Below, one piece after another: positions 1 to 47,275 of a DNA stretch of 47,275 nt (position 1 is its first letter; each line of letters opens with the position of its first letter). The notes below the pieces were generated by a model. The model searched no databases, was not told the DNA's origin, and worked only from the letters and a program-made list of their open reading frames with translations. The position numbers and the translations under genes are program-made. This DNA comes from Actinomycetota bacterium (GTDB taxonomy: Bacteria; Actinomycetota; UBA4738; HRBIN12), in assembly GCA_036520695.1 (NCBI GenBank), contig DATDJD010000375.1, positions 1-47,275 of the forward strand, given 5' to 3'.

Positions 1-141
1 GACGCCAGGAACAAGGCGGAGGCCGCGCCCGAGAAGAAGGCCAAGAAGGCCAAGGACTGAGGTTGTGCTGACCGTCGCGGACTTCCGGCTATTCGCCTCG
101 ACCCCGATGGGGGACGCGGCTATCCAGAAGCTGCTCGACGA
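1..141. repeat. Terminal overlap, copy 1, identical to 47135-47275 (circular closure of the contig)
   Basis: Bases 1-141 (gacgccaggaacaagg...ctgctcgacga) recur exactly at 47135-47275. The repeat runs through the 3' end of one CDS and the 5' end of the next. Unique length is 47134 bp. Confidence 0.95.
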
Positions 142-3759: not shown

Positions 3760-4343
3760 GGCCTCCGCAGTGCGCCGGGTTGGTGCAGAAGCCGGAAGGG
3801 TTGCGGCTGGCGCAGCTTGCCTCCGACGTGCCGCAGTACCAGGCCATCGTAGAGATCGGCACCCACACCGGGCTGTCGACGTGCTGGATGGCCGAGGGTT
3901 CGGAACGCGGGCGCGGCGCGCACATCACTGCGGTCGATCCTTGGGCACCTCCGCGTCCCGGTACGCAGGACGACCCGTTCGGGCTGGTCGATGGAGACGG
4001 GGTGTACCGGCAGTTCGCGAAGAACCTGGCCGACGAGCATCACTGGGGCACGGTCACTCCGCTGCGGGCGCGCTCTATCGAGGCGGCAGGGTTGTGGGTG
4101 CAGCCGGTGGGGCTGGTGTTCATCGACGCCATCCACGAGTACGACGCGGTCCGTCGGGACTACCTGGCCTGGGAGCCGCACGTTCCGGTCGGCGGGTGGA
4201 TCGCGTTCCACGATTACACCGAGGATCCGGCGCACGAGTACTACGGCGTCGCTGCGGCGGTCAACGGAGTCGTCGTTCCGTCCGGTAACTGGGGCACCCC
4301 GGAAGTGACGGAATACCTGTGGACGGCGAGGCGGGTGGCATGA
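3756..4343 (+). CDS. class I SAM-dependent (O-)methyltransferase-like protein
   Basis: ATGA overlap start; 195 aa. Has IVEIGTHTGLST (motif I-like), VTAVDPW and LVFIDAIHEYDAV, typical of Methyltransf_24/CmcI-like O-methyltransferases. Confidence 0.6.
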   Translation: MRPPQCAGLVQKPEGLRLAQLASDVPQYQAIVEIGTHTGLSTCWMAEGSERGRGAHITAVDPWAPPRPGTQDDPFGLVDGDGVYRQFAKNLADEHHWGTVTPLRARSIEAAGLWVQPVGLVFIDAIHEYDAVRRDYLAWEPHVPVGGWIAFHDYTEDPAHEYYGVAAAVNGVVVPSGNWGTPEVTEYLWTARRVA

Positions 4344-4543
4344 GGAAGCTGTGCCAGTGCGGCCACCCTGACGCTACTCACGTCGGGCCGGATGGGCCGT
4401 GCCGCATGAACAAGTGTCGCTGCGAGCTCTTCAACGAGGTCGGGGCCGCGGGCCGTCCGGAGCAGCCGTCGCGGATGGTGACGTTCGAGATCCCCGATGG
4501 CTACGTCCTCAACGTGCAGCTGGTGCCGGTCGATGGCTCGTAA
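4340..4543 (+). CDS. small Cys-rich protein (CxC...C...CxC)
   Basis: ATGA overlap start; 67 aa. Sequence MRKLCQCGHPDATHVGPDGPCRMNKCRCE suggests a zinc-binding knuckle. Last gene of the sugar-modification block. Confidence 0.5.
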   Translation: MRKLCQCGHPDATHVGPDGPCRMNKCRCELFNEVGAAGRPEQPSRMVTFEIPDGYVLNVQLVPVDGS

Positions 4544-4961
4544 GCGTTCCTCCCGAGTGGTCCTCAACCGGAGGAACATGCACGGCGTCGAGCTGGCGTT
4601 GGCGGACGGTGTCAACGCGGTCGCGCGGGCGATCGTCGAAGGGGCCGATCCGCCAGACGCAGCACCGTATGGCGTGGGCCTGGTCACCCGCGGCGGGTGG
4701 CTGACGTACATCGGTGACAAGAAGATCGACGGCGGTAGCACGTCGGGCAGGCAGCCGAAGAAGCCGCGATCGTTCCGAGTGAAGGGCACGGTCGGCATCG
4801 TGGCGATCGCTGGCTTCAGCTTCCCCGGGCGGTTCCAAGAGTTCGGCACCGTGCATCAGGCCGCGAAGCCGTTCCTGGCTCCGGCGCGGGATCGGGTGGT
4901 GCCGCATGTCGACTCGATCATGAAGCGCAACGCCTCGTACCGATTGGCGCGCATCCGATGA
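4533..4961 (+). CDS. HK97 gp10-like neck / tail-completion protein
   Basis: 142 aa. The C-terminal motif QEFGTVHQAAKPFLAPA is characteristic of the HK97 gp10 family. Start chosen at ATG 4533. Confidence 0.65.
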   Translation: MARKRSSRVVLNRRNMHGVELALADGVNAVARAIVEGADPPDAAPYGVGLVTRGGWLTYIGDKKIDGGSTSGRQPKKPRSFRVKGTVGIVAIAGFSFPGRFQEFGTVHQAAKPFLAPARDRVVPHVDSIMKRNASYRLARIR

Positions 4962-14058: not shown

Positions 14059-15600
14059 GTGAGCCTGCTCCTCCTCTTCCAAGGCGGCGTCGAGTCGTGC
14101 GACGAGGGGTTTCAAGGGGATGCGTTCCAAGACGACGCGTTCCAGATGTGCGTCGAGGCGGATCGCTCTGCCTCGGGATCGGCCACCGGCTCCGGCGACA
14201 CAACCGGTGCGAAGCAAGCCAGCGGATCCGCCTCCGGTTCGGCGTCTGTCTCTGGTGATACAGCGGGCCAGAAGCTCGCTGCCGGGACCGCGTCCGGCAC
14301 GGGCGGATCGTCGGGCCAGGCGACCGGTTCCAAGCAAGCTGCGTCGGTCGCGGACGGCTCCGGCTCCGGTTCGGGTTCCGGCTCCGGGACTGGAGGCCAC
14401 GCTGGCGCGGTAGCAGGCTCCGCTACGGCCTCCGGCGATACGAGCGGGGCCAAGGCCGCGAGTGGAACGGCCAGCGGCTCAGCGACCGTTTCAGGGGCGG
14501 TCACGGGCGAGAAGAATGCGGCCTCGGCTGTCTCCGGCTCCGGCTCCGGCTCCGGCTCGGCCAGCGGCGAGGAGGGCCACCCGGCGATCGTCGAAGGTTC
14601 CGCATCCGCGAGTGGCGCGGTCACCGGTGACAAGGCAGCCTCGTCGGCAGTCTCGGGCTCCGGCTCCGGGTCGGGCGAGGTCAACGGCCAGGAGGGTGCG
14701 TCGAACGTCATCGACGGGTCGGCTTCCGCCAGCGGCTCGGCAGTGGGCGAGAAGAACGCCTCAGGATCAGCCACAGGCTCCGCAACTACCAGCGGCGAGG
14801 TAGTTGGCGCCAAGCAGGCTAACGGAGCTGTAGCGGGCTCTGGAGCGGGCTCAGGGGAGTCCACTGGGAATGCCTTGCAACTGGCCGACGGGCAAGCCAT
14901 CGGCTCGGCGACGGCTTCCGGGTCTGTCGTCGGGGCCAAGTCGGCCAGCGGGGTCGCGGATGGTAGCTCCGGGACGTCGGGCGCGGTCGTCGGGGAGAAG
15001 GCGGCATCCGGCTCCGGGTCTGGTTCTGGCTCTGGTTCCGGCGAGGTCATCGGGGATGGTGCTCAAGCCGGGATCGCGGAGGGGACTGCCTACGCCAACG
15101 GTGAGGTGGTCGGGTCCAAGCAGGCGTCGTCGTCCGTCTCGGGTTCCGCGACCGGATCGGGTGAGACCGAGACCGAGTCACCCAGCGCAGCAGTCGAAGG
15201 CTCGGCGGGTGCGTCGGGAACGGTCGCCGGGTTCTCTGCACGCGCGTCGATCTCAGACGGCTCCGCGGCATCTGGCGGGACGACGGGCGGCGAGCATCTG
15301 GCGTTCGCCTCCATCGCGGGGCTTGTGGCTGCCACCGGGTTGGTCGCCGGATCGAAGCAGGCCAACGGATCCGCGTCAGGCTCGGCTACGGCAACAGGCT
15401 CGCTTTCCAACATCCCACCGTTCATCTTCCCGCGCGGGATCCGCGGTTCCACCACTGCTCCAGGGCTGGACGGATCGACCCGCGTTCCGGTGCTGGTTGG
15501 AGGCACCATTGCTCCATCCGGCCCGACCGGCTCTACCGAGACTCGTGAGCTGGTCGGTACTACCAGCGGCAACCACCCCACCGGCAACACGGAGGTCTGA
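14059..15600 (+). CDS. Gly/Ser/Ala/Thr-rich decapeptide-repeat fibre protein
   Basis: GTG start; 513 aa. The N-terminus (MSLLLLFQGG) resembles actinophage minor tail proteins. Residues ~37-450 are almost entirely G/S/A/T with a strict 10-residue periodicity. Confidence 0.6.
   Translation: MSLLLLFQGGVESCDEGFQGDAFQDDAFQMCVEADRSASGSATGSGDTTGAKQASGSASGSASVSGDTAGQKLAAGTASGTGGSSGQATGSKQAASVADGSGSGSGSGSGTGGHAGAVAGSATASGDTSGAKAASGTASGSATVSGAVTGEKNAASAVSGSGSGSGSASGEEGHPAIVEGSASASGAVTGDKAASSAVSGSGSGSGEVNGQEGASNVIDGSASASGSAVGEKNASGSATGSATTSGEVVGAKQANGAVAGSGAGSGESTGNALQLADGQAIGSATASGSVVGAKSASGVADGSSGTSGAVVGEKAASGSGSGSGSGSGEVIGDGAQAGIAEGTAYANGEVVGSKQASSSVSGSATGSGETETESPSAAVEGSAGASGTVAGFSARASISDGSAASGGTTGGEHLAFASIAGLVAATGLVAGSKQANGSASGSATATGSLSNIPPFIFPRGIRGSTTAPGLDGSTRVPVLVGGTIAPSGPTGSTETRELVGTTSGNHPTGNTEV
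14167..15408 (+). repeat. about 40 tandem degenerate 30-bp (decapeptide) units, with a 60-bp super-repeat
   Basis: Gly falls at every 10th residue from aa 10 to 270, and the pattern resumes after a 2-residue phase shift. Lys recurs at aa 52, 72, 92, 132, 152, 192, 232, 252, 294, 314 and 354, mostly 20 or 40 aa apart. Confidence 0.8.
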
Positions 15601-16444: not shown

Positions 16445-16478
16445 GGGGGTTTACATATTCGCGCGGATGGCGCATACT
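16445..16478 (+). promoter_or_regulatory. promoter-like motif P1 (GGGGGTTTACA, 17 nt, CATACT)
   Basis: The -35 TTTACA is at 16450-16455, the spacer is 17 nt, and the -10 CATACT is at 16473-16478. It lies in an intergenic gap and is one of six related copies. Confidence 0.6.
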
Positions 16479-16520
16479 TCCGTTGTTGGCCTCGTTCGGA
16501 TGAGGCCCAAGACGGAAGGA

Positions 16521-16670
16521 ATGGAACCACCGATGCGCGATCTTCTTCGGCTCTACCGCTCTTCCCGGCAGCGGAGCCAGCGGCTCTGTTTCCGGTCGTT
16601 CTGCCAACGCCCTTGCCGCGACGATAGCAGTTCGTTCTGCGAGCCGTGCCAGCGCGAGTTCGAGTCGTGA
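16521..16670 (+). CDS. small Cys-rich protein
   Basis: 49 aa (an alternative ATG is at 16533). The leader gacggaaggaatgga is shared with the gene after P4. Carries C...FC..PC...FCEPC. Confidence 0.45.
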   Translation: MEPPMRDLLRLYRSSRQRSQRLCFRSFCQRPCRDDSSSFCEPCQREFES

Positions 16671-18221: not shown

Positions 18222-18255
18222 GGGGGTTTACATATTCCGCGGGATGGGGTAAAGT
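18222..18255 (+). promoter_or_regulatory. promoter-like motif P2 (GGGGGTTTACA, 17 nt, TAAAGT)
   Basis: The -35 is at 18227-18232 and the -10 is at 18250-18255. It begins 16 nt after the upstream stop codon. Confidence 0.6.
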
Positions 18256-18302
18256 TCTCTTACCGGAACGGAACCGGGGAACGGATCGAAGGAGTGGATG
18301 AG

Positions 18303-20488: not shown

Positions 20489-20763
20489 CACCGCTGCATC
20501 CTGCGCCGCAGCCGGTCCTGATCTACGAGGTCGTGTTCCGCACTGACGAGGCCTACTTCACCGTCGCCCACTTCGAACTGCGGCAGGACGCCGAAGCCGC
20601 AGCGGCCATCGGCAACGTCGGCCGCACCGAACGGGACAGCCGGTTCGAGGTAGCGGATCGGTTCATGTTCCGGGCCAACGACCAGCCGTTCGAGACGCTG
20701 GAGGATCTGAAGGAGACGCTGGAGGAAGTGATGGGCGACGTGGACGACTGGTTCGACGAATGA
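20485..20763 (+). CDS. hypothetical acidic protein
   Basis: GTGA overlap start; 92 aa. Confidence 0.55.
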   Translation: MTPLHPAPQPVLIYEVVFRTDEAYFTVAHFELRQDAEAAAAIGNVGRTERDSRFEVADRFMFRANDQPFETLEDLKETLEEVMGDVDDWFDE

Positions 20764-21791
20764 CTGAGGAAGCGAACGACGACGCGCGCCGCGAGTTCGT
20801 CGAGCAGCAGGCGTCCGGCCTCGGGGCCACCGATGCCGCGAAGATCCTCGGCCTGTCCCGCTGGGGGACCCCGCTGACGGTCTACAACCGGATCGTCCAC
20901 GGCGACACGGGCGGGCAGATGTCGCTCTCGGCCTGGCTCGGGCTGAAGCTCGAGCGAGTCGTGGGCGAGATGTACACGACCAAGACCGGCCAGGCGCTGC
21001 GGGTGGACAACAAGCACCACCGTCGCCCTGGCTACGATTGGCAGGTCGCACACTTAGACTTTCGTGCCCGGGGCAACCCGAAGCTGCTGGTGGAGTGCAA
21101 GACCCGGGCCTACGCCACCGGCTACGGCGAGGACGGGACGGGCGAGATCCCCGCGGACGTCTATGTCCAGGTGCAGCATGAGATGGCCGTGACCGGGGCC
21201 GAGCGCTGCGACGTGGCAGTCCTGATCGGGCACCATACGTTCAACGTCTACCCGATCCCGCGCGCCGACGACTTCATCGACAAGATGACCGAGCGGCTGG
21301 AAGCGTTCTGGCTCGGCAACATCGTGGCGAAGGTGCCACCGCTGCCGACCGGGCACGACATGGACAGCGACTACGTCAAGCGCAAGCACCCCGACCACGA
21401 CGATCTGCTGAAGCCTGCCACCCCGGAGCAGATCCTTCTCGCTAATCGGCTGCGTGTGGCCAGGGACACGGTGAAGGAAGCGGAGACGCAGCGGTCCGAG
21501 GTCGAGAACCTGCTGAAAGACATCATCGGGGACGCGGCAGGGTTGACCGGCCCGTTCGGGGAGATCACTTGGAAGAAGTCCCGCGACAGCGAGTCGGTGG
21601 ATTGGGAACAGGTTGCCATCACCTACGGCTCCGTCATCGAGGATCTGTTCACCATCGCCAACCCGGGCGACGATCCCGAAGTGGTCGCGCGGTTGGGTCG
21701 GGCGCAATCGGTCTACGGCACCGCCGTGGGCCTGGCCACCACCACCAAACCGGGGAGCCGTCGGTTCCTCGCCAGCTTCAAGAAGGACTGA
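20760..21791 (+). CDS. YqaJ-like recombination exonuclease (PD-(D/E)XK)
   Basis: 343 aa. Has GATDAAKILGLSRWGTP and HLDF...LLVECKT, which is D...ExK-like. Lies upstream of RecT. Confidence 0.75.
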   Translation: MTEEANDDARREFVEQQASGLGATDAAKILGLSRWGTPLTVYNRIVHGDTGGQMSLSAWLGLKLERVVGEMYTTKTGQALRVDNKHHRRPGYDWQVAHLDFRARGNPKLLVECKTRAYATGYGEDGTGEIPADVYVQVQHEMAVTGAERCDVAVLIGHHTFNVYPIPRADDFIDKMTERLEAFWLGNIVAKVPPLPTGHDMDSDYVKRKHPDHDDLLKPATPEQILLANRLRVARDTVKEAETQRSEVENLLKDIIGDAAGLTGPFGEITWKKSRDSESVDWEQVAITYGSVIEDLFTIANPGDDPEVVARLGRAQSVYGTAVGLATTTKPGSRRFLASFKKD

Positions 21792-21793
21792 CG

Positions 21794-22216
21794 ATGAGGG
21801 GTTGGATCTACGGTACTCCAAGCAGTCGGGACCGTCCCGATTGCCAGTGCTGGCGGGATACCTTGTGCCGCCACAAGGACGGGTGGACCTGGGACCCAAT
21901 CAATTGGGATGACTCGCCTTGCGAGCACCACACTTGGGCCTTCCTACCGGACGTCTTCATCAGTTTCGCAGACATGCTCCGAGACGCCGAGTTCGTCAGC
22001 GGTTCGCTGACTGCGGACCAGCGTGGTCGAGTCTTGTTTGGCTGGACAGCCGACCGGACTAGGGTCATCGAGGCATTCGTCATGCCCAAAGGAATGCCGG
22101 ACTCAGCGTTCGTGGACGACCACGACGTTGAGGGCAGCGAGTGGACGCCGCTGTTATATGCCCATTACACCGACATCGTTCCCCGAGGGAACGTGCGTAA
22201 GGAGATGATACGCTGA
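21794..22216 (+). CDS. hypothetical protein (lower-GC insert between exonuclease and RecT)
   Basis: 140 aa. Visibly lower GC and more A/T-ending codons than its neighbours. Confidence 0.5.
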   Translation: MRGWIYGTPSSRDRPDCQCWRDTLCRHKDGWTWDPINWDDSPCEHHTWAFLPDVFISFADMLRDAEFVSGSLTADQRGRVLFGWTADRTRVIEAFVMPKGMPDSAFVDDHDVEGSEWTPLLYAHYTDIVPRGNVRKEMIR

Positions 22217-23259
22217 TGCCTACCAACCCTGGACCCGCACCCGTCGCGACGCGCGCACTCGCCAAGCCCGAGGTCAACTATCAGGAGGTCGTGGATGAGA
22301 TGCGCGGGCAGTCCCGCAGCCTGCTGGCGATGTTCGCCGGAGACAAGCGGTTGCGCGACCGTTTCATGAGTTCGGCGCTGGCGATGCTGGCCCGCAACCC
22401 GGAGATCCTGCGCGACGCCACCCCGATCAGCATCGTGCACGCCATCAACGAGTCGGCCCGGTTGGGCCTGGAGCCGATGACGGAGGAGGCCGCGATCGTC
22501 GTGTACTCCGGCGTCGCCACGTTGCTGCCGCAGTGGCGCGGCTACGTCAAACGCATCCGCAACTCGGGCGAGGTCGTGGACTTCGACTGCCAGCTGGTCT
22601 ACTCCAACGACGACTTCCGTTGGCAGGCAGGGACGGATGCGTTCGTCCACCACGTCCCGGCACTGGAGGATCGCGGCGACCACTGGGGTGCCTACGCCTT
22701 CGCCATCATGCCTTCGGGCCGGGTCATCCCGGAAGTGATGACGTTCGCGGACATCGAAGCAGTCCGGTTGCAGTTCGGGAACACCAGATCCCGCAACAAC
22801 AAGCCGCTACCGTGGGAGACATCGTGGGGCGAGATGGCCCGCAAGACCGTCATCCGCCGACTGGCCAAGCGGCTGCCCGGTGCGGCGGTGAGCCATCTGC
22901 TGGAGGCCGACGCGCGGGCGGATCAGGTCATCGACGGCCAGGCGGCGAAGATCCGCGAACTGGACTCCGGGCTGTCCGAGGTCCGGAAGATGGCCCTGGC
23001 AGCCGTAGGCGTCCCAGAAGCGGAGCCGGACGACGATGTGGGCGAGGGGCAGGTTGTCGAGGTAACGGACCACCTGGACGCTCCAGCGGGCGCTGAGGAG
23101 CCGCTGACGGGCGGCATCGTGATGCACCCGGACGATGTGGCCGAGATCCGGGCAGGCGCGCTCGACACGGCTCCGGACCCGGGTGCCGACCCGAACGTAG
23201 CCGCAGCGATGAAACTCTCCGAGGAAGAGGAACAGCTGCGACGGAACCGTGGACGATGA
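22216..23259 (+). CDS. recT: RecT-family single-strand annealing protein
   Basis: 347 aa. Has ISIVHAINESARLGLEP, GYVKRIRNSGEV and WGEMARKTVIRRLAKRLP, followed by an acidic C-terminal tail. Confidence 0.8.
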   Translation: MPTNPGPAPVATRALAKPEVNYQEVVDEMRGQSRSLLAMFAGDKRLRDRFMSSALAMLARNPEILRDATPISIVHAINESARLGLEPMTEEAAIVVYSGVATLLPQWRGYVKRIRNSGEVVDFDCQLVYSNDDFRWQAGTDAFVHHVPALEDRGDHWGAYAFAIMPSGRVIPEVMTFADIEAVRLQFGNTRSRNNKPLPWETSWGEMARKTVIRRLAKRLPGAAVSHLLEADARADQVIDGQAAKIRELDSGLSEVRKMALAAVGVPEAEPDDDVGEGQVVEVTDHLDAPAGAEEPLTGGIVMHPDDVAEIRAGALDTAPDPGADPNVAAAMKLSEEEEQLRRNRGR

Positions 23260-25813: not shown

Positions 25814-26008
25814 TCGTGGTCGGACGGTGCGACGTGGTCACGGATGTCAAGGTCGGGACTAACAGACACCGGCACTACTTGGGAGAAGTTCGCCGCCTAA
25901 CGGCTGTGCGCTCCATTTCCTTCGGCCACTAGCGTGGTCGTCCCCTGGGTGCTCCGGCCACTCCCGGCCACCGTCCAACAATCGGATCTGACAGGAAAGG
26001 ATCAAGCA

Positions 26009-27109
26009 GTGACTGACTCCATCGCCGCATTCGAAGCGCGGATCGTCCCCGAACTGGCGCAGTTCGTCCGTCCCATCGGGGACGCCACGAGGCACCCGGA
26101 CAACATCCGCAAGCATCGCATCGACAAGATCGCGCAGAGCCTCCGGGCCCACGGCCAGCGCGCCGCCATCGTGGTCCAGAAGTCCACCGGCCTGATCGTG
26201 AAGGGCAACGGCACCCATGAAGCCGCGGAGCTTCTGGGGTGGACCGACATCGCGCAGATCTGGCAGGAGATGACCGACGAGGAAGCGTTGGCGTTCCTGT
26301 TCGCTGACAACAAGGCCAGCGACTTCAGCAGCTACGACCGGGACAAGACCGTGGCCGGGTTGAAGAAGCTCGCCGCTGGCCCGGGCCTGTTCGACTCCCT
26401 GTGGGAGATCGAGGAACTGGAGGATCTGGTCGAGCAAGCCGATGGCATGGCCGTTCTGGAAGCGCAGGGCACCACCGCAAGCCTGGCCACGGCAACCGCT
26501 GGCGGCACGCCGATCACCGAGGCTGCCAAGGCACCCCCGGAGCGGATGAAGGAGATCCCGCTGGTCATGACCCTGGCGGACCACTCGAAGTTCGTCGAGT
26601 CCCTGAAGGTGTTGGCCAAGCTGTTCAAGACCAACGGCACCATCGCCACCATCGTGGAAGCCGTGCGTCGCCAGGCTGCGGCCGAAGCGGGCGCACCGAT
26701 CGTCGGTTCGGCCGATCAGGATGCCGTGGTGTACGGAGCGCAGCGGGCGCTGGTCAAGGAACTGCGCGACTACATCGCCACCCAAGGCATCGAACGATCC
26801 TACTCCGGTACCTGGCTGATGGCGCAGCTGGAGTCGATGGTCCCGTACCGCGCGCAGCCAACGGCTGAGCCGGTGGTCGTTGGGCAAGTGGAAGCCTTCC
26901 CGGAGGGTGCAGAGGAGGCACCCGCAGTCAGCCCGCTACGGTCGCCGGATCCCCTCCCGGTGGCCGTAGCAGAGGCTGATACCGAGGACGACGTCGAGGC
27001 GCTCGAGATGCTGGCCCGGATCCGCAAAGGTGACGCCATGCCGCTGGTCCAAGCGCAGGCCGCAGCCGTCCTCGCCGCAGAGGCAGCCGATCCGAGCGCT
27101 GAACTGTGA
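26009..27109 (+). CDS. ParB-like nuclease domain protein
   Basis: GTG start after ggaaaggatcaagca; 366 aa. The N-terminus (HPDNIRKHRIDKIAQSLRAHGQRAAIVV...IVKGNGTHEAAELLGW) is ParB/Srx-like. Confidence 0.7.
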   Translation: MTDSIAAFEARIVPELAQFVRPIGDATRHPDNIRKHRIDKIAQSLRAHGQRAAIVVQKSTGLIVKGNGTHEAAELLGWTDIAQIWQEMTDEEALAFLFADNKASDFSSYDRDKTVAGLKKLAAGPGLFDSLWEIEELEDLVEQADGMAVLEAQGTTASLATATAGGTPITEAAKAPPERMKEIPLVMTLADHSKFVESLKVLAKLFKTNGTIATIVEAVRRQAAAEAGAPIVGSADQDAVVYGAQRALVKELRDYIATQGIERSYSGTWLMAQLESMVPYRAQPTAEPVVVGQVEAFPEGAEEAPAVSPLRSPDPLPVAVAEADTEDDVEALEMLARIRKGDAMPLVQAQAAAVLAAEAADPSAEL

Positions 27110-31409: not shown

Positions 31410-31444
31410 GGGGGGTTTACATTTCGCAACGGATGGCGCATGAT
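31410..31444 (+). promoter_or_regulatory. promoter-like motif P4 (GGGGGGTTTACA, 17 nt, CATGAT)
   Basis: The -35 is at 31416-31421 and the -10 is at 31439-31444. The spacer shares cGGATGGCGCAT with P1. Confidence 0.6.
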
Positions 31445-31489
31445 TACGTCAACGGGTCGAACGGAGGACCCGGCAGACGGAAGGAATGG

Positions 31490-31795
31490 ATGAAGATGGC
31501 TGAGATCACCGGGTTCTGGATGGCTAGCAATGAGACCATCCACGCGGCGGGTTGCGCTCACGCGATCAAGCTCCGCGTACTGTTCGATGCTCCCACGATC
31601 GAATACGCGAAGAAGTACGCCGACGAGCCCCGAAACGTGCGCGTGGCGCCGTGCGCCAAGAAGGCGGTGGCGAAGAAGCGCAAGACGTTCAACCCGGGAC
31701 CGGGCGATGGGAACTGCTTTCATTGCGGCACCAACGGCGAGGCGCACGCTAGGATCGGTGGGTTCCCAGTCTACTGCCCGGAGCCGGTTCGATGA
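31490..31795 (+). CDS. hypothetical protein
   Basis: RBS ggaagga at 31479-31485. Start is ATG 31490 or 31496; 101 aa. Confidence 0.55.
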   Translation: MKMAEITGFWMASNETIHAAGCAHAIKLRVLFDAPTIEYAKKYADEPRNVRVAPCAKKAVAKKRKTFNPGPGDGNCFHCGTNGEAHARIGGFPVYCPEPVR

Positions 31796-31950
31796 TCTGC
31801 AAGCAGTGCGGCATCGACACTCCCCGCCTTCGCCTACGTCAGCGCTACTGCCCGACCTGCGAGGTCGCGGTCGAGAAGCAGCTGCGATGGTTCGCGCGGA
31901 TCCCGCGTTGGCCGTTCGGCAAGGATCTGACGTGGTGGGTGCGGGCATGA
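31792..31950 (+). CDS. small zinc-ribbon protein (not in the supplied ORF track)
   Basis: ATGA overlaps at both ends; 52 aa. Sequence is MICKQCGIDTPRLRLRQRYCPTCEVAVEKQLRWFARIPRWPFGKDLTWWVRA. Confidence 0.5.
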   Translation: MICKQCGIDTPRLRLRQRYCPTCEVAVEKQLRWFARIPRWPFGKDLTWWVRA

Positions 31951-32306
31951 GCCAGCGCAATCTGGTCCTGCGCCTGCTCCGTGAGGCCGGACCCGAAGGG
32001 GTCGATAATCACGCTCTCGTATATGTCTATGGCGTGACGAGAGCCGCGTCCATCGTCCACGGCTTGCGGATCGATGGGCATCCCGTCGATACCATCGACC
32101 GCGGGTTCGCACCCGACGGTAGGCGAAGGCTCTGCACCTACGTCCTCAGAGGCGCTCAGGCGTCCCAGGCGGCTCCCGCGATCCCAAGTGAGCCAGGTGC
32201 GCCCGCTCCCGAGCTACCGCTGCCCTGTGGCTGTATTCGAGCCGCTGGCGGGATGGCGTGGAAGTCGCGTTGCGAGCGCCACGATCGGAACCAGGAGGCG
32301 ATATGA
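31947..32306 (+). CDS. winged-helix/HTH DNA-binding protein
   Basis: ATGA overlap start; 119 aa. Has LVLRLLREAGPEGVDNHALVYVYGVTRAASIVHGLRIDGHPV. Confidence 0.5.
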   Translation: MSQRNLVLRLLREAGPEGVDNHALVYVYGVTRAASIVHGLRIDGHPVDTIDRGFAPDGRRRLCTYVLRGAQASQAAPAIPSEPGAPAPELPLPCGCIRAAGGMAWKSRCERHDRNQEAI

Positions 32307-32584
32307 CGACCGAACCGCAGACGACGGCCGGCCGGGCGCTGCTCAAACGCGAGGAACTCAACAGCCGCTCGTTCGCGCTCATCACGACCGACGCCATCGT
32401 CGCCATCGAACGCGAAGCCGCCACCCGCGCCCGCTCCGGGCTGGACGCGGGGCTGCTGTACGAGGCCATTCGTCGGACTTGGGTCGCAGGGCACGACGAT
32501 CTGCGGAGCGGGCTGACTACGGACCCGATCGAGGCGACGCTCGCCGCCGCCATCCTCGCCCGTCTCACCGAGGCCGAGTCGTGA
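32303..32584 (+). CDS. mosaic small-gene family member 1
   Basis: ATGA overlap start; 93 aa. Shares the N-terminal TEPQT motif and a 66-bp block (AIEREAATRARSGLDAGL) with member 4. Confidence 0.6.
   Translation: MTTEPQTTAGRALLKREELNSRSFALITTDAIVAIEREAATRARSGLDAGLLYEAIRRTWVAGHDDLRSGLTTDPIEATLAAAILARLTEAES
32391..32456 (+). repeat. 66-bp dispersed repeat, copy A
   Basis: 63/66 identical to 33211-33276 (acgccatcgtcgccatcgaacgcgaagccgccacccgcgcccgctccggg...). Confidence 0.9.
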
Positions 32585-32865
32585 GCACCGATCGCGTGGA
32601 TGCGGTGCTCATCGGCATGATCCGAACTTCGTGGCCGATGAGCCGTGACCAGTACGAGAAGGGCTGGAACGAGGCCATCCACGCCGCCCGCAAGGCTCTC
32701 GCCTCGTCCGGGGAGGCCGCTCCCGTCGATGGGCTGGACGACATCGCCGATGGGGTCCGCTATGCGGGCGGCAACGGAACGTCGGACTACTGGCGCGGGT
32801 TCAACGACGGCATCGACAAGCTCGTAGCGGCCGCCCGAGAGGAGGCCGACGATGGCCGCTCTTGA
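32581..32865 (+). CDS. mosaic small-gene family member 2
   Basis: GTGA overlap start; 94 aa. Contains SSGEAAPVDGL and ends in REEADDGRS. Confidence 0.6.
   Translation: MSTDRVDAVLIGMIRTSWPMSRDQYEKGWNEAIHAARKALASSGEAAPVDGLDDIADGVRYAGGNGTSDYWRGFNDGIDKLVAAAREEADDGRS
32836..32860 (+). repeat. start-associated junction repeat, copy 1 (CGAGAGGAGGCCGACGATGGCCGCT)
   Basis: A 25-mer containing the RBS GAGGAGG and the ATG of the next gene. It also encodes the REEADDGR C-terminus of the previous gene. Confidence 0.85.
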
Positions 32866-33118
32866 CCGCATCCGCGACTGGTTCGATGCGCCGCGGTTCT
32901 GCCCGGACGACGGCCAGCCAATCAGCGTCACCAACAAACCGCGCTTCGACCCCAAGACCGGAGCAAAGCGCGACTCGTGGTACTGGCGATGCCCCGACGT
33001 AAGCGTCTACCACGAGGGCGGGTCCATCCAGTGGAGCCAGAGAGGCACACACAGCGTCCACGTCCACGGTCAAGGCCGCCCCCGTTGGTTCCGAGAGGAG
33101 GCCGACGATGGCCGCTGA
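32852..33118 (+). CDS. mosaic small-gene family member 3
   Basis: Its start lies within a junction repeat; 88 aa. Ends in REEADDGR. Confidence 0.6.
   Translation: MAALDRIRDWFDAPRFCPDDGQPISVTNKPRFDPKTGAKRDSWYWRCPDVSVYHEGGSIQWSQRGTHSVHVHGQGRPRWFREEADDGR
33092..33116 (+). repeat. start-associated junction repeat, copy 2
   Basis: Identical 25-mer to copy 1. Confidence 0.85.
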
Positions 33119-33674
33119 CCTGACCGAACCGCAGACGGCGGCAGGACGCGAGCTGCGCGACGACATCCAAGAGAGCATCGACGCGGGTGGCGGTCTGCAC
33201 GGCTACCGCGACGCCATCCTCGCCATCGAACGCGAAGCCGCCACCCGCGCCCGCTCCGGGTTGGACGCGGGGTTGCGAGAGGCGCTGCGTCACTGGCTCC
33301 AACATGGCGCGGAGTGCGGTTACACCAGCGACGTGACGTTCACAGGCCAGTGTGAGTGTGGACTGGAAGCCGCTCTCGCCTCGTCCGGGGAGGCCGCTCC
33401 CACGACGTCGTGGAAGTACGACCAACGATGCGAGGTGACAGCAGAGGACCACGAACTGGGGGCGGCCTGCTATCCGCTCCTGCCACACTCCCATCGAAAC
33501 GGAACCATCAAGTGGGCGCGTCGGTTTCCGTCCGGGGAGGCCGCTCCCGTCGATGGGCTGCGAGCGGCGGCGCGTGAAGTCGTGCGCCTGTTCAGGGAGC
33601 ATCCGGCCAGCCTCGCGGGTGTCCACGTCAGGGCACTGGACCGACTCCGAGAGGAGGCCGACGATGGCCGCTGA
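33108..33674 (+). CDS. mosaic small-gene family member 4
   Basis: Its start lies within a junction repeat; 188 aa. Carries TEPQT, the 66-bp block and two SGEAAP segments. Ends in REEADDGR. Confidence 0.6.
   Translation: MAADLTEPQTAAGRELRDDIQESIDAGGGLHGYRDAILAIEREAATRARSGLDAGLREALRHWLQHGAECGYTSDVTFTGQCECGLEAALASSGEAAPTTSWKYDQRCEVTAEDHELGAACYPLLPHSHRNGTIKWARRFPSGEAAPVDGLRAAAREVVRLFREHPASLAGVHVRALDRLREEADDGR
33211..33276 (+). repeat. 66-bp dispersed repeat, copy B
   Basis: 63/66 identical to 32391-32456. Confidence 0.9.
33648..33672 (+). repeat. start-associated junction repeat, copy 3
   Basis: Identical 25-mer to copy 1. Confidence 0.85.
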
Positions 33675-33993
33675 CCCGACCGAACCGCAGACGGTGGTTA
33701 TCGAACTCCCGACCCAGTTCGACCCTATAAACGACACCCTCGCCCTCGTCCTGCCCCACGGCCTCACCTACACCCGCGTGGACAGGGTCCCCTACGTCGG
33801 CTCCAATGACTACGCCGTCACGCTCAGCCTCGACGCCACCCGCGCCTCCGTCGATGGGCTGCGAGCGGTCGCTGATGCGTGGGCGGCGTTCGCGCCGCAC
33901 GTTCGGACGTGGGACCCGTTCTGCGACGAAATCCGCGACGCGGCATACGACGCTCTGACCGCCCTCGCCCGAGAGGAGGCCGACGATGTCTGA
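33664..33993 (+). CDS. mosaic small-gene family member 5
   Basis: Its start lies within a junction repeat; 109 aa. Carries TEPQT and SVDGLRAVA. Ends in REEADDV. Confidence 0.6.
   Translation: MAADPTEPQTVVIELPTQFDPINDTLALVLPHGLTYTRVDRVPYVGSNDYAVTLSLDATRASVDGLRAVADAWAAFAPHVRTWDPFCDEIRDAAYDALTALAREEADDV
33970..33988 (+). repeat. start-associated junction repeat, copy 4 (19-bp core CGAGAGGAGGCCGACGATG)
   Basis: The core is identical through the ATG of the VRR-NUC gene. Confidence 0.85.
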
Positions 33994-34321
33994 GCCTCAC
34001 TACGCCGAACTGGACATGTTCGAAGCCGATCTGAAAGCCGCGGTCATCAAGATCGCCAAGCGCGAACGCTGGCTCGTCCACCACACCGCCAACCGCCAGG
34101 GATCCCGCAACTCGGCCAAAGGATCCGGGGTGCCGGACCTCATCATGGCGCACCCCGGGGGTAGGCTTATCCTGGCTGAGTTGAAGAAGCAGAAGGCCAA
34201 GCTCGAGCCGTTGCAGGAACAGTGGCAGTTCGCGTTGGAGCGGTGCCCTGGCATCGAGTACTATGTCTGGCGACCGTCGGATTTGCCGGACATCGACCGC
34301 ATCCTGGGAGGAACGCAGTGA
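33986..34321 (+). CDS. VRR-NUC domain nuclease
   Basis: 111 aa. Has GVPDLIMAHPGGRLILAELKKQKAKLEPLQEQW, a PD-(D/E)XK D...ExK pattern. Confidence 0.7.
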   Translation: MSEPHYAELDMFEADLKAAVIKIAKRERWLVHHTANRQGSRNSAKGSGVPDLIMAHPGGRLILAELKKQKAKLEPLQEQWQFALERCPGIEYYVWRPSDLPDIDRILGGTQ

Positions 34322-34890
34322 GCATTCCCGGTAGGTTCCACGCCGAAACGATCGCGCCATTCGACGTCCTGCCAGGGCAGACGGTAACGATCCCGCTGTT
34401 CGATGCGGGGATCAGCACCAAAGAGTTCGCGCTGCCGACACAGGATACCGACTTTGACACCGAGGTCAGCGACGTCTCGCTACCATCGTTGGTGGCGCAA
34501 CGACCAAACCGGACGGTCGTTGACATCGTGCGCTTGCGGGACGTCGGGCCGGACGATGATGACCGTACCGGCAGATCCGTTCGTGCCATCTCCCCGCCGA
34601 CGCATAGTCACGGGCCGAACAAGACCGTGGCTGGGACGACCGTGGCTGGGGCGATGAGCGCTGGAGCGTCGGGAACATCGACGTGGGCCGACACCTTCCA
34701 CAAGGAGGAGTTCGTCAACGAGACCGACGGACCGTTCTGCCTGCGGATCGCGCACAATGGCTCGGGGAAGATCACGGTCGGCAAGGTTGTGTTCCGCGCC
34801 AACAACGACGATGCCAAAGACATCTACCGCAAGGGCGGCTACAACCTGATGTCGGACGGATCCGTCTCCCGGTTGCCGGTGATCGTATGA
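34318..34890 (+). CDS. hypothetical protein
   Basis: GTGA overlap start; 190 aa. Confidence 0.55.
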   Translation: MSIPGRFHAETIAPFDVLPGQTVTIPLFDAGISTKEFALPTQDTDFDTEVSDVSLPSLVAQRPNRTVVDIVRLRDVGPDDDDRTGRSVRAISPPTHSHGPNKTVAGTTVAGAMSAGASGTSTWADTFHKEEFVNETDGPFCLRIAHNGSGKITVGKVVFRANNDDAKDIYRKGGYNLMSDGSVSRLPVIV

Positions 34891-35270
34891 AGAAGGCATT
34901 GGCGTTCATCCTGCTGTTGGCCCTGGGAACGACTACCGTTTCTGCGGCAGTCCGCGGTACGGCGACGTTCTACTGTTCCGATGGTCGCGACGGCTCGCCG
35001 GTCAGCCGCTGCACCCGCGGCTTCGGCCCCAGCGATCTGGTAGGTGCGATCGACCGGAAGGACAGCACCTACCGCAAGGGCGACTTCGTAAAGGTGTCCC
35101 ACGAGGGTAAGTCGGTGACGGTCCTGATCGTGGACACCTGCGCTTGCGGTGGCGATCGACTGATCGACTTGACGATCGGTGCGTTCCAGCACCTGGCACC
35201 GTGGGGCGCAGGTGAGATCCGGGTCAAGCTCTCGAACGCTGGACTTCCGGCAACGGACACGCAGCCATGA
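34887..35270 (+). CDS. secreted RlpA/3D-like double-psi beta-barrel protein (putative lytic transglycosylase-like)
   Basis: ATGA overlap start; 127 aa. Has a signal peptide (MKKALAFILLLALGTTTVSAA), then GTATFY...GKSVTVLIVDTCACGGDRLIDLTIGAFQHLA. Confidence 0.6.
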   Translation: MKKALAFILLLALGTTTVSAAVRGTATFYCSDGRDGSPVSRCTRGFGPSDLVGAIDRKDSTYRKGDFVKVSHEGKSVTVLIVDTCACGGDRLIDLTIGAFQHLAPWGAGEIRVKLSNAGLPATDTQP

Positions 35271-35767
35271 CCACCCCCACCGAAGCCCTCGCCGCGGCCC
35301 TGCTGCGGGCTGTCCCCGGATACCAGCGATGGCTGACTCACCCGGCCAACACCGCGAACGCGGCGGCGGGTCAGGTCGCCACGATGGAGTCCGAGGCGCA
35401 CGTCCACGCCTTCACACTCCTCTCCGCCCTTTCCTCCTCCGGTTGGTCACTGGTACGGACGGAGGGGCTGGCCGAAACGCGCGAGGCGCTGGAGAGCATG
35501 GCGCTTCAGTTCGGCTACTGGTCGGATGGCGTCGGCGGCATCGGGACGGGCGGGCTATCGGCGCTGGAGGAAGCCTTCGACGTGCTTGGCTGGGACGACC
35601 CCCATCCACTCCCCGAGCGGCGCTGCGACGAGCCGGGGTGCATGCAGGACGGCACGATGGGATGGCCTACGCGACCGGGCGGAACCGGACCGAACGGCGG
35701 CTACCGGCGAACGTGCTGGGGCCACTCCGACATCGGTAAGGCGCGCGCCGCTGAGTCCCGTCCATGA
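35267..35767 (+). CDS. hypothetical protein
   Basis: ATGA overlap start; 166 aa. Confidence 0.55.
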   Translation: MTTPTEALAAALLRAVPGYQRWLTHPANTANAAAGQVATMESEAHVHAFTLLSALSSSGWSLVRTEGLAETREALESMALQFGYWSDGVGGIGTGGLSALEEAFDVLGWDDPHPLPERRCDEPGCMQDGTMGWPTRPGGTGPNGGYRRTCWGHSDIGKARAAESRP

Positions 35768-47050: not shown

Positions 47051-47194
47051 GTGGCAACCGAGAAGATCTATCTCCCGAAGCAGCGCGTCAAGCGCGGCGT
47101 GGCGGGCTATCGCGGCAAGGACATCGTCGTGATGGACGCCAGGAACAAGGCGGAGGCCGCGCCCGAGAAGAAGGCCAAGAAGGCCAAGGACTGA
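47051..47194 (+). CDS. small Lys-rich protein
   Basis: GTG start after ggaaggag; 47 aa. Ends in AAPEKKAKKAKD. Its 3' end is duplicated at 1-60. Confidence 0.5.
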   Translation: MATEKIYLPKQRVKRGVAGYRGKDIVVMDARNKAEAAPEKKAKKAKD

Positions 47195-47275
47195 GGTTGT
47201 GCTGACCGTCGCGGACTTCCGGCTATTCGCCTCGACCCCGATGGGGGACGCGGCTATCCAGAAGCTGCTCGACGA
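47135..47275. repeat. Terminal overlap, copy 2, identical to 1-141
   Basis: See copy 1. Confidence 0.95.

Follow-up and report, generated by a model that had tools for sequence, protein, structure and literature searches.

Organization of the array and its repeats

The 47,275-nt stretch of DNA analyzed here (contig DATDJD010000375.1 of assembly GCA_036520695.1; referred to below as the window) derives from an uncultured soil phage and carries an array of five small, overlapping genes (g1 to g5), followed directly by a gene for a VRR-NUC nuclease. The genes are assembled from variable modules that are joined by about six short DNA blocks of 15-66 nt (5' junction-A, A, B, C, D and E), all of which are read in frame. 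The locus lies in the non-structural region between the RecE/RecT/ParB genes and the terminase gene. The features are as follows, all on the + strand.

20760-23259 (+): RecE-like exonuclease (20760-21791) and RecT-like annealase (22216-23259)
31416-31444 (+): promoter-like site (TTTACA, 17-nt spacer, CATGAT), the third copy of a 36-nt repeat and the likely start of the operon containing the array
31947-32306 (+): conserved upstream gene, about 119 aa, no family match, 92% aa identity to its counterpart in locus L010 (see below); left flank of the array, with its last 17 nt belonging to the 5' junction block
32286-32323 (+): 5' junction-A block, CGGAACCAGGAGGCGATATGACGACCGAACCGCAGACG (Shine-Dalgarno, ATG, MTTEPQT)
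32303-32584 (+): g1, 93 aa, N-terminal domain (A...B) plus one C-terminal module
32389-32456 (+): block B, copy 1, AIVAIEREAATRARSGLDAGL
32581-32865 (+): g2, 94 aa, GTG start overlapping the g1 stop as GTGA; unique N-terminal part, then C-D linker, C-terminal module and E
32695-32736 (+): block C-D, copy 1, ALASSGEAAPVDGL
32833-32860 (+): junction E, copy 1 (AREEADDGR, stop; Shine-Dalgarno GAGGAGG; ATG of g3)
32852-33118 (+): g3, 88 aa, Cys/His-rich, sharing only E at both ends with the other genes
33089-33142 (+): junction E, copy 2, fused to block A (start of g4), part of a 52-nt repeat at 96%
33108-33674 (+): g4, 188 aa, module order A-B-C-C'D-E
33209-33280 (+): block B, copy 2
33372-33407 (+): block C, copy 2, ALASSGEAAPTT
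33526-33569 (+): block C'-D, copy 2, SGEAAPVDGLRAA
33645-33697 (+): junction E, copy 3, fused to block A (start of g5)
33664-33993 (+): g5, 109 aa; A, a unique module, D, the C-terminal module and E
33843-33874 (+): block D, copy 3 (ASVDGLRAV)
33967-33988 (+): junction E, copy 4 (AREEADDV, stop; ATG of the VRR-NUC gene), right boundary of the variable array
33986-34321 (+): VRR-NUC nuclease gene, 111 aa, conserved right flank

This analysis was motivated by an initial annotation, made from the sequence alone, that described an array of five mosaic genes joined by identical start-associated junction repeats. We confirmed this observation: the junction, the five genes, and every other repeat that had been listed are located where they were reported, although the start given for the array (32295) lies 8 nt upstream of the g1 ATG. 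The junction, CGAGAGGAGGCCGACGATG, occurs exactly four times, at 32836, 33092, 33648 and 33970, all on the + strand; no other copies were found in the window with up to three mismatches allowed, 0.06 copies are expected by chance, and none of 100 shuffled sequences reached four. The first three copies are identical over 26 nt, CCGAGAGGAGGCCGACGATGGCCGCT. Each copy encodes REEADD(GR/V) followed by a stop, carries GAGGAGG six nt before the ATG, and supplies the ATG of the next gene, giving overlaps of 14, 11, 11 and 8 nt. ACCGAACCGCAGACG, which encodes the shared gene start, is present at 32309, 33123 and 33679. The 66-nt block is 63/66 identical between 32391-32456 and 33211-33276 (reported as 68 nt at 96% by the repeat search), C-D is repeated over 32 nt at 100%, and the SSGEAAP/VDGL segment recurs at 32695-32736, 33372-33401, 33519-33560 and 33843-33877. 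The description of the five genes as paralogous is only partly right. Based on blastp, g1 and g4 share a real N-terminal domain (E 5e-14) and g2, g4 and g5 share a C-terminal module (E about 3e-5), while g3 shares only the junction.

The window is a circular assembly with a 141-nt terminal overlap. Independent k=31 contigs from the same run confirm every unique segment at 100% identity; however, these contigs break at the three repeats that share at least one 31-mer, and the order across these repeats therefore rests on the assembly of the window itself. Raw reads were not available, and neither the gene order nor within-sample recombinants were examined at the read level. The product of the right flanking gene matches Pfam PF08774 (VRR-NUC) with 24.5 bits against a cut-off of 23.8 (E 3e-5) and PHROG 93 (endonuclease) with E 3.5e-11. 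In contrast, g1-g5 gave nothing above threshold in Pfam, PHROGs and NCBIfam, and a PDB sequence search with the family profile returned nothing. An AF2 model of g4 from an 18-sequence alignment had a mean pLDDT of 56.6, which is too low for a fold search, and none was run. In protein clusters at 90% identity, g1, g3, g4 and g5 are singletons; g2 was not looked up. Searches of GenBank phage DNA in near and distant modes and tblastn of g1 against GenBank phages found no match, and TerL is at most 40% identical to that of any cultured phage, so that no host was assigned.

Conservation of the blocks in other phages and habitats

The blocks recur at 93-100% nucleotide identity in five other metagenomic phage loci, one of which has an unrelated backbone, while the sequence between them is unalignable and differs in length. 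In the metagenomic locus L008, block B matches copy 2 of the window over 66 nt at 97%, C over 33 nt at 100%, C'-D over 38 nt at 100%, and E over 34-37 nt at 92-94%, whereas orthologous neighbor genes in the same comparison are 66-84% identical. L052 is a phage of roughly 19 kb. Apart from the mosaic protein itself (36% aa), its only protein matches to the window are a VRR-NUC at 40% and a TerL at 24%, based on tblastn of called genes, which replaced a tblastx comparison that gave only noise. L052 still carries the 5' junction-A block (38 nt at 100%), C (39 nt at 97%), D (43 nt at 93%) and E (24 nt at 100%), and a 31-nt core of C'-D is identical in the window, L008 and L052. The 5' junction-A block is also 97.7% identical over 44 nt in a further locus, L055. 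The 17 nt upstream of the g1 ATG are conserved whether they are coding, as in the window, or intergenic, as in L052 and L055.

Conservation extends to synonymous sites. In runs of five or more identical residues, 54 of 57 block codons are identical between the window and L008, compared with 46 of 84 in orthologous genes (Fisher p 6e-8). For the window and L052, the figures are 40 of 42 and 13 of 27 (p 9e-6); here, the baseline counts runs of three or more identical residues because runs of five gave only five codons. The identity of the blocks is not codon bias: block codons are 95% identical between phages, while conserved residues of orthologous genes in the same phage pairs give about 50%. 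The blocks also retain minor codons (GCT 0.11, CGA 0.10, CCC 0.19, GGG 0.22, GAA 0.27), and the probability of the exact codon string given its peptide is about 1e-7 for B and 8e-6 for C.

Block B is far more widespread than the phage. Its 31-mers occur in at least 11 runs from seven studies, whereas the array as a whole was found in only one run. Contigs in eight of those runs match only blocks, in new orders and spacings. Contigs from bog, sediment, wastewater, freshwater and mine-tailings runs match several blocks and nothing between them, and wetland and two other runs match one or two. In IMG/VR, a block B 18-mer gave 19 hits, all chance matches such as methyltransferase genes, and a block C 18-mer gave none; a junction 18-mer gave seven unrelated contigs, close to the chance expectation except for the repeated junction of one viral contig, L001. 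A second block B pattern gave 12 hits in the metagenome and GTDB genome collections that carried no other block and were judged to be chance, providing no host or prophage lead.

Differences between relatives start and stop at blocks. Locus L010 has two genes where the window has five; its first gene equals the N-terminal half of g1, then B, then the middle of g4, exactly as a deletion between the two B copies would give. L057, L010 and the window share the VRR-NUC gene at 84-85% nucleotide identity, but each has a different gene upstream, joined through E. L054 and L055 are 99.1% identical from inside block B onwards and unrelated before it, and L054 and the second gene of L010 are 88.9% identical up to the end of B and unrelated afterwards. 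L054 and L055 may be paralogous copies within one genome rather than alleles, in which case they show a block-bounded duplication and not exchange between phages. We also note that only about six relatives with usable context were found, that most of these are short contigs, and that alignment ends are biased towards conserved blocks because conserved sequence extends alignments. The initial annotation had named in advance an outcome that would count against it, namely, that related phages carry the same five genes in a fixed order with divergent junctions; rather, relatives carry different cassettes joined by conserved junctions. The wider family, which has 323 representative clusters, shows the same pattern, and many members carry lineage-specific linker peptides repeated within one protein.

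Proposed module exchange at in-frame linkers and alternative explanations

We suggest that the locus is a translationally coupled operon of small, multi-module proteins that belong to an uncharacterized phage family with the N-terminal domain M-T-(T)-E-P-(Q/R)-T-x-A-G-R-x-L-L ... I-L-A-I-E-R-E-A. Inside a gene, a block encodes an inter-module linker; at E, it encodes the C-terminus of one gene, a strong Shine-Dalgarno sequence and the ATG of the next gene. According to this model, which we hold with moderate confidence, homologous recombination between the blocks inserts, deletes, duplicates and swaps modules in frame, both within a genome and between co-infecting phages, plausibly using phage single-strand-annealing systems such as the RecE/RecT pair encoded by this phage. 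Modules flanked by consensus blocks would spread most easily, which would keep the blocks nearly identical across a wide pool of phages while everything between them turns over. Rad52-like phage recombinases are reported to promote relaxed homologous recombination (PMC3945230); however, the involvement of RecE/RecT is inferred only from their presence in the genome. What our data show is that the repeats exist as described, that the blocks are conserved at the nucleotide and synonymous level across unrelated backbones and habitats, and that differences between relatives are bounded by blocks, while the recombination mechanism, the enzymes involved and translational coupling at E are inferences. 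All evidence is comparative, and no recombination event was observed directly. Frequent exchange alone may not be enough to keep the blocks identical worldwide, and a DNA-level function, such as a site for a nuclease or recombinase, or strong peptide-level selection on the linkers could contribute and is not excluded. We have no function for the proteins, and early-expressed host-interaction proteins would be only a guess.

The initial interpretation, a cassette array diversifying by homologous recombination at the junctions, is supported, including the suggestion that the last junction, at the VRR-NUC gene, takes part. It requires additions, because the exchange points are not only the start-associated junction: at least four internal in-frame blocks behave the same way, and the blocks are shared with phages of unrelated backbone. 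Its alternative, a shared translational control element, is compatible with E but cannot explain B, C and D, and its suggestion of an anti-defense or host-takeover locus was not examined here. More speculatively, and in our view less likely than not, the blocks could form a dedicated, globally shared recombination "grammar," in which a fixed set of in-frame linkers is maintained by selection for exchangeability, possibly with a cognate nuclease or annealase acting on them. This would let phages of unrelated lineages trade protein modules and whole small genes without breaking reading frames and would amount to a natural domain-shuffling system for a family of early proteins.

Among the alternatives, all of which we consider unlikely, the least unlikely by a small margin is that the blocks are cis-acting DNA or RNA sites held constant by that function, e.g., as recognition sites for a phage nuclease, recombinase or regulator or as RNA processing or structure elements, with module exchange as a by-product or actively stimulated by cleavage at the sites. 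Identity at synonymous and non-coding positions across unrelated phages is consistent with this possibility. Moreover, the arrays abut nuclease genes in the window, L010 and L057 (VRR-NUC), in L052 (a 244-aa protein that looks like a PD-(D/E)XK nuclease by eye but was not family-tested) and in L054 (weak HNH match upstream). However, predicted RNA folding of the blocks is no better than that of shuffled controls (z from -1.25 to +0.8), Rfam gave only sub-threshold chance hits, no promoter or terminator consensus lies at the junctions, there is no palindromic symmetry typical of protein-binding sites, and no motif shared by all the blocks was found by eye.

It is also conceivable, but doubtful, that the blocks are conserved only because they encode functional peptide motifs, such as linkers, helix caps or short linear motifs of a fast-evolving protein family, and that the sequence between them has simply diverged beyond recognition, recombination being incidental or absent. 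Consistently, every copy is read in the same frame and gives the same peptide, the wider family conserves the N-terminal and C-terminal motifs at the protein level even where the DNA differs, and the blocks fall at helix ends and loops in the low-confidence AF2 model. The synonymous codon identity, the retained minor codons, the conservation of the 17 nt before the g1 ATG in coding and non-coding contexts, the unalignable inter-block segments of different lengths, and the step from 99% identity to nothing inside a block between L054 and L055 argue against this explanation.

Equally doubtful is that the repeat is mainly a translation element, i.e., an optimized Shine-Dalgarno, spacer and ATG with an overlapping stop codon, repeated because of selection for expression and not for recombination. 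GAGGAGG lies 6 nt before the ATG in all four copies, and the stop codon of each upstream gene lies 8-14 nt inside the next gene. Moreover, the unrelated viral contigs L001 and L002 use the same 16-mer, GAGGAGGCCGACGATG, at gene starts, and L001 has it at two exact junctions plus a third, diverged copy (GAGGGAGGGCGACGATG). In addition to the internal blocks, this explanation does not account for the conservation of 5-10 nt upstream of the Shine-Dalgarno sequence and of 6 nt after the ATG, and relatives differ in which genes sit on either side of E. The two functions are not mutually exclusive.

An assembly artifact is very unlikely: although the k=31 contigs break exactly at the repeats, the k=31 graph allows four orders of the pieces, and piece depths are uneven (7.5-16.2x against a 12.8x backbone), exact repeats are at most 41 nt, shorter than any read, the window was assembled with a k of 141, every unique piece is confirmed, and the same blocks and the same kind of mosaic occur in independent samples, studies and assemblers. 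Integron attC sites, shufflons and diversity-generating retroelements were dropped without a dedicated test because the repeats are direct and lie in frame within coding sequence and no integrase, invertase or reverse transcriptase was seen among the genes examined; likewise, programmed frameshifting at E was dropped because there is no slippery heptamer.

Relation to known module-exchange systems

The idea that phages swap gene modules by recombining at conserved linkers is old and rarely documented, and it lost favor because linkers are rarely found at mosaic boundaries (PMC3029335). The locus is a clear natural case in which the linkers can be named base by base, which makes the model directly testable; it also defines a widespread family of modular small phage proteins.

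In Cluster K mycobacteriophages, start-associated sequences (SAS and ESAS; Pope et al. 2011, PMC3203893) are asymmetric repeats with a Shine-Dalgarno core that lie 3-7 nt upstream of mostly ATG starts of non-structural genes, in one orientation, and are conserved beyond what rRNA pairing needs. Junction E resembles them in position, with GAGGAGG ending 6 nt before the ATG in all four + strand copies, but the analogy, raised in the initial annotation, is one of position only: the 13-nt consensus GGGATAGGAGCCC has no match in the window with up to two mismatches. SAS occur 11-19 times, dispersed and mostly after intergenic gaps of more than 50 bp, and half carry 17-bp inverted repeats (ESAS), while the four copies here lie within 1.2 kb, each overlapping the C-terminus of the upstream gene, and no inverted repeat lies next to any copy.

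In gp38 adhesins of T-even phages, glycine-rich motifs separate hypervariable segments, and genetic exchanges that create chimeras occur within or near these conserved in-frame motifs (PMC3157838, which cites Tetart et al. 1996 and 1998). That system is a single structural host-range protein with fixed motif order inside one phage group. Here, the array comprises tandem non-structural small genes with variable module number and order, the blocks double as gene junctions and are shared between phages with unrelated backbones, and g1-g5 have no Pfam or PHROG tail or adhesin match.

In the PeSL (promoter-early stem-loop) cassettes of T4-type phages (Arbiol et al. 2010, PMC2839356; PMC4122927), short conserved repeats flank small, mostly ORFan genes in variable regions, and recombination between the repeats accounts for insertions, deletions and replacements between relatives. 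Differences bounded by repeats were likewise seen here for the window and L010, the window and L057, L054 and L055, and L054 and L010. PeSLs are intergenic regulatory cassettes made of a sigma-70 promoter plus a terminator stem-loop, whereas the repeats here are coding, lie within genes as well as at gene boundaries, and carry a Shine-Dalgarno and ATG; no promoter-like or terminator-like site lies at any junction, the only promoter-like site being that at 31416-31444 and the only terminator-like sites lying on the minus strand at about 34810-34839. The formation of circular DNA by exchange between neighboring repeats was not assayed; the only hint is contig L056, whose ends overlap by 126 nt to give an 854-nt unit, which a tandem repeat would explain equally well.

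Finally, the modular theory predicts short sequences conserved at module boundaries and shared by otherwise dissimilar phages, and the blocks that are 93-100% identical between the window and L052 fit this signature. The comparative breakpoints also fit recombination at the linkers but, without a directly observed event, leave open whether it actually occurs there. PMC3029335 reports one case with the same feature as junction E, i.e., Island3 genes 67 and 68, which share about 50 bp encoding 18 C-terminal residues. Here, the linkers form a multi-member set that is reused many times per locus, lies inside coding sequence, and is documented across many habitats.

Repeats, genes and genomic context of the array

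We confirmed the repeats and the five small genes that were reported in the initial annotation. The 19-mer CGAGAGGAGGCCGACGATG occurs four times exactly, at 32836, 33092, 33648 and 33970, and no further copies were found in the 47 kb window, even with three mismatches allowed, compared with a chance expectation of 0.06. Three of the copies are identical over 26 nt. Each copy encodes REEADD(GR/V) followed by a stop and carries GAGGAGG six nt before the ATG of the next gene, and successive genes overlap by 8-14 nt. The genes, read from the sequence, are as follows.

Genes at the locus, all on the + strand
32303-32584 (+): g1, 93 aa
32581-32865 (+): g2, 94 aa, with a GTG start in a GTGA overlap with g1
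32852-33118 (+): g3, 88 aa
33108-33674 (+): g4, 188 aa
33664-33993 (+): g5, 109 aa
33986-34321 (+): VRR-NUC gene, 111 aa, just above threshold for Pfam PF08774 and with a PHROG endonuclease match

The other listed repeats are also present, i.e., ACCGAACCGCAGACG in three copies, the 66-68 nt block at 96% identity, and the SSGEAAP/VDGL segment in four copies. However, the description of the genes as paralogous holds only in part, because g1 and g4 share an N-terminal domain (E 5e-14) and g2, g4 and g5 share a C-terminal module (E about 3e-5), while g3 shares nothing but the junction. Genome-wide, this locus holds most of the direct-repeat families of 20 nt or more. The main ones elsewhere are a promoter-like triplet and Gly/Ser-rich repeats at 14314-15062, which have spacings that are multiples of about 60 nt (five copies of roughly 83 nt at 60-77% identity) and lie inside a 513-aa ORF (14059-15600) without a PHROG match that is possibly a tail-fibre-like protein.

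The first and last 141 nt of the window (1-141 and 47135-47275) are identical, making it a circular or terminally redundant assembly, and a Logan contig from the same run joins its end to its start. It represents a complete siphovirus-like phage of about 47.1 kb and 65% GC from a soil metagenome. All genes lie on the + strand, and the annotated genes encode a tape measure protein, a RecE-like exonuclease and a RecT-like annealase (20760-23259, with a short ORF between them), a ParB-like protein (25934-27109), the terminase small and large subunits, and the portal, protease and major capsid proteins. The phage carries its own putative short-homology recombination system. A tandem 21-nt duplication (GAGACGCTGGAGGATCTGAAG / GAGACGCTGGAGGAAGTGATG) is located at 20692-20733, just upstream of, and running into, the start of the RecE-like gene. 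TerL is at most 40% identical to that of any cultured phage, so that no host could be assigned. A 36-nt promoter-like repeat, GGGGGTTTACAT...GATGGCGCATACTTC, with a −35 TTTACA and a −10-like CATACT, TAAAGT or CATGAT, is present in three copies (16445-16480, 18222-18257 and 31411-31446), two of which are followed by a conserved leader (16492-16525 and 31457-31490) ending GACGGAAGGAATGGA. These are probably the phage's own early or middle promoters. The third (promoter-like site at 31416-31444) lies 0.9 kb upstream of the array and likely drives the operon that contains it; this operon probably runs on into the VRR-NUC gene.

Independent k=31 contigs from the source run confirm each unique piece of the array at 100% identity but break at the three repeats that share at least one 31-mer, and the k=31 graph allows four orders of the pieces. 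The pieces across 32411-33675 have uneven depths (7.5, 9.7, 12, 16.1 and 16.2x against a 12.8x backbone, with the shared B node at 23.6x), which could be noise at this depth or could reflect a mixture of array variants in the sample. The order of the pieces was not examined in raw reads. Because the exact repeats (41 nt or less) are shorter than reads and the window came from a k=141 assembly, misassembly, which the initial annotation had named as a finding that would overturn its reading, is unlikely.

Conservation of the blocks in other phages

A protein search with g4 found only two relatives. Reading their DNA showed that five short stretches were nearly identical to the window, while everything between them was unalignable. 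The junction is one of a set of short blocks.

Blocks and what they encode
5' junction-A: Shine-Dalgarno, ATG, MTTEPQT
A: TEPQT
B: AILAIEREAATRARSGLDAGL
C: ALASSGEAAP(TT)
D: VDGLRAA
E: AREEADDGR, stop, and the next ATG

A profile search and contig look-ups added more loci. In the phage locus L008, B is 97% identical to the window over 66 nt, C 100% over 33 nt, C'-D 100% over 38 nt and E 92-94% over 34-37 nt, while its orthologous neighbour genes are only 66-84% identical in DNA and 49-59% in protein. L052 is a phage of roughly 19 kb, for which the only protein matches to the window, apart from the mosaic protein itself (36% aa), are a 40% VRR-NUC and a 24% TerL; it still has the 5' junction-A block at 100% over 38 nt, C at 97% over 39 nt, D at 93% over 43 nt and E at 100% over 24 nt. 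The same island pattern occurs outside the array. The gene at 35267-35767 shares with its L008 counterpart (L008 3207-3479) only its first 11 codons (35262-35298; 37 nt, 100% identical) and an internal LSALSSSGWSLVRTEG block (35419-35468; 50 nt, 96%), while the rest is unrelated and the proteins differ in length (166 against 90 aa). The words sampled from this second island (35405-35475) were found only in the source run.

This pattern is not just peptide conservation plus codon bias. In runs of five or more identical residues, 54 of 57 codons are identical between g4 and its L008 homologue, while orthologous genes of the same two phages give 46 of 84 (Fisher p 6e-8). Against L052, the figures are 40 of 42 and 13 of 27 (p 9e-6); the baseline in this case counts runs of 3 or more identical residues because runs of 5 gave only 5 codons. 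Moreover, the blocks are full of minor codons for this genome (GCT 0.11, CGA 0.10, CCC 0.19, GGG 0.22, GAA 0.27), and the probability of the exact codon string given the peptide is about 1e-7 for B and 8e-6 for C. The 17 nt before the g1 ATG are the end of the upstream ORF in the window but intergenic in L052 and in the locus L055, and they are conserved in both settings. Finally, the two B copies within the window are no closer to each other (65/68) than to the copy in L008, arguing for exchange between genomes rather than only intragenomic gene conversion.

Rearrangements at the blocks, their distribution and the protein family

A comparison of the locus between relatives had been proposed in the initial annotation as a test of exchange at the junctions, and in every case that we could examine, the rearrangements map to the blocks. 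The close relative L010, with flanks 84-87% identical, has two genes where the window has five. L010 502-1000 aligns to window 31936-32456 and L010 934-1122 aligns to window 33210-33398, and the overlap between these two alignments is block B. Its first gene is, therefore, the N-terminal half of g1, B, and then the middle of g4, exactly as a deletion between the window's two B copies would produce. The loci L054 and L055 are 99.1% identical from inside B for 440 nt and unrelated before it, while L054 and L010 gene b are 88.9% identical up to the end of B and unrelated after it. However, L054 and L055 may be two copies within one genome, and we note that alignments naturally end in conserved sequence. 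A 982-nt contig, L056, has ends that overlap by 126 nt (1-126 and 855-980), giving an 854-nt unit made of a 64-aa gene, P0017 and the MADDP gene, which implies either a tandem repeat or a circular form; L054 and L055 suggest two successive copies whose 99%-identical part begins inside block B.

The window, L010/L051 and the relative L057 share the VRR-NUC gene at 84-85% nucleotide identity (about 91% amino-acid identity between the window and L010/L051), but the upstream genes are three different ones, each ending in the E junction. In L057 (350-859), the VRR-NUC ORF runs on into the C-terminal part of the DPBB (RlpA-like) gene, giving a 169-aa product, and the 190-aa gene and the DPBB N-terminus present in the window (34318-35270) are missing. 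Similarly, E is followed by different genes in different loci, i.e., a small membrane protein in L008, a nuclease-like gene in L052, and yet another gene in L054 and L055. The unrelated viral contig L001 (IMGVR_UViG_3300017992_000005) has its own run of three gene junctions (3860-4650) of the form ...GAGGAGGCCGACGATGAGTGAG, which give ...EEADDE followed by a stop and then MSE...; these, and a site at about 8505 in the viral contig L002, use the same 16-mer as the window junction. This is either convergence on an optimal Shine-Dalgarno, spacer and ATG, or distant shared descent.

The whole array is found in one public run only. By contrast, the 31-mers of block B occur in at least 11 runs from 7 studies, covering bog, sediment, wastewater, freshwater, soil, wetland, freshwater sediment and mine tailings. 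When contigs from eight of those runs were aligned to the array, depth peaks sat on the blocks and depth was zero between them. Individual contigs carry the blocks in new orders and spacings, and a 12-nt deletion variant of B, also seen in L010 gene b and L052, recurs there.

A profile search of 1.84 billion representatives found 323 clusters at E ≤ 1e-3. These are small proteins with the same N-terminal domain followed by variable modules. Many members repeat a lineage-specific linker peptide within one protein, as in the case of AAAGPRD (three times), ASQERPxPD (three times), PEPTPDTGL (three times) and ERAARATPDA (twice). Repeated linkers flanking variable modules are, therefore, a family trait, and the window's lineage is one exchange pool with its own linker set. 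No Pfam, PHROG, NCBIfam or PDB relative that names the family was found, and these proteins have no known function. An AF2 model of g4 has low confidence (mean pLDDT 56.6), with only the N-terminal helical hairpin moderately confident; in this model, the blocks fall at helix ends and loops.

Proposed mechanism and comparison with known systems

While the repeats, their conservation and the block-bounded differences between relatives were observed directly, the mechanism is inferred from them. The best-supported reading is that homologous recombination at short, in-frame, conserved DNA blocks shuffles the modules. Altogether, our findings support the main inference of the initial annotation, i.e., diversification by recombination at the junctions, and extend it, because the exchange points include internal blocks as well as the junction. 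Blocks of 24-66 nt may be long enough for phage single-strand-annealing recombinases. This phage encodes a RecE/RecT-type pair, and such enzymes are reported to promote relaxed homologous recombination (PMC3945230). Because the blocks are in frame, every exchange would yield an intact protein or an intact gene boundary. E additionally provides a strong Shine-Dalgarno sequence and an overlapping stop and start, so that a newly inserted gene would be translationally coupled at once. In this view, the identity of the blocks across phages would follow from frequent exchange, in that modules with consensus flanks would spread while mutated flanks would drop out of the pool. A direct DNA-level function is not excluded. 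In contrast, predicted RNA structure in the blocks (z from −1.25 to +0.8), an Rfam search in which no family reached threshold, and promoter and terminator scans that found nothing at the junctions give no support for an RNA or transcriptional element.

The Cluster K SAS (PMC3203893) resemble E only in position, and their consensus is absent here. The PeSL cassettes of T4-type phages (PMC2839356) are closest in working principle; however, PeSLs are intergenic promoter-terminator units. The glycine-rich motifs of gp38 (PMC3157838) are the closest precedent for in-frame conserved motifs as exchange points, but they are located within a single adhesin. As a system of a known kind, this is unusually clean and widespread, and it occurs in an uncharacterised protein family. 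Finally, this locus fits the signature predicted for the boundary sequences of the modular theory.
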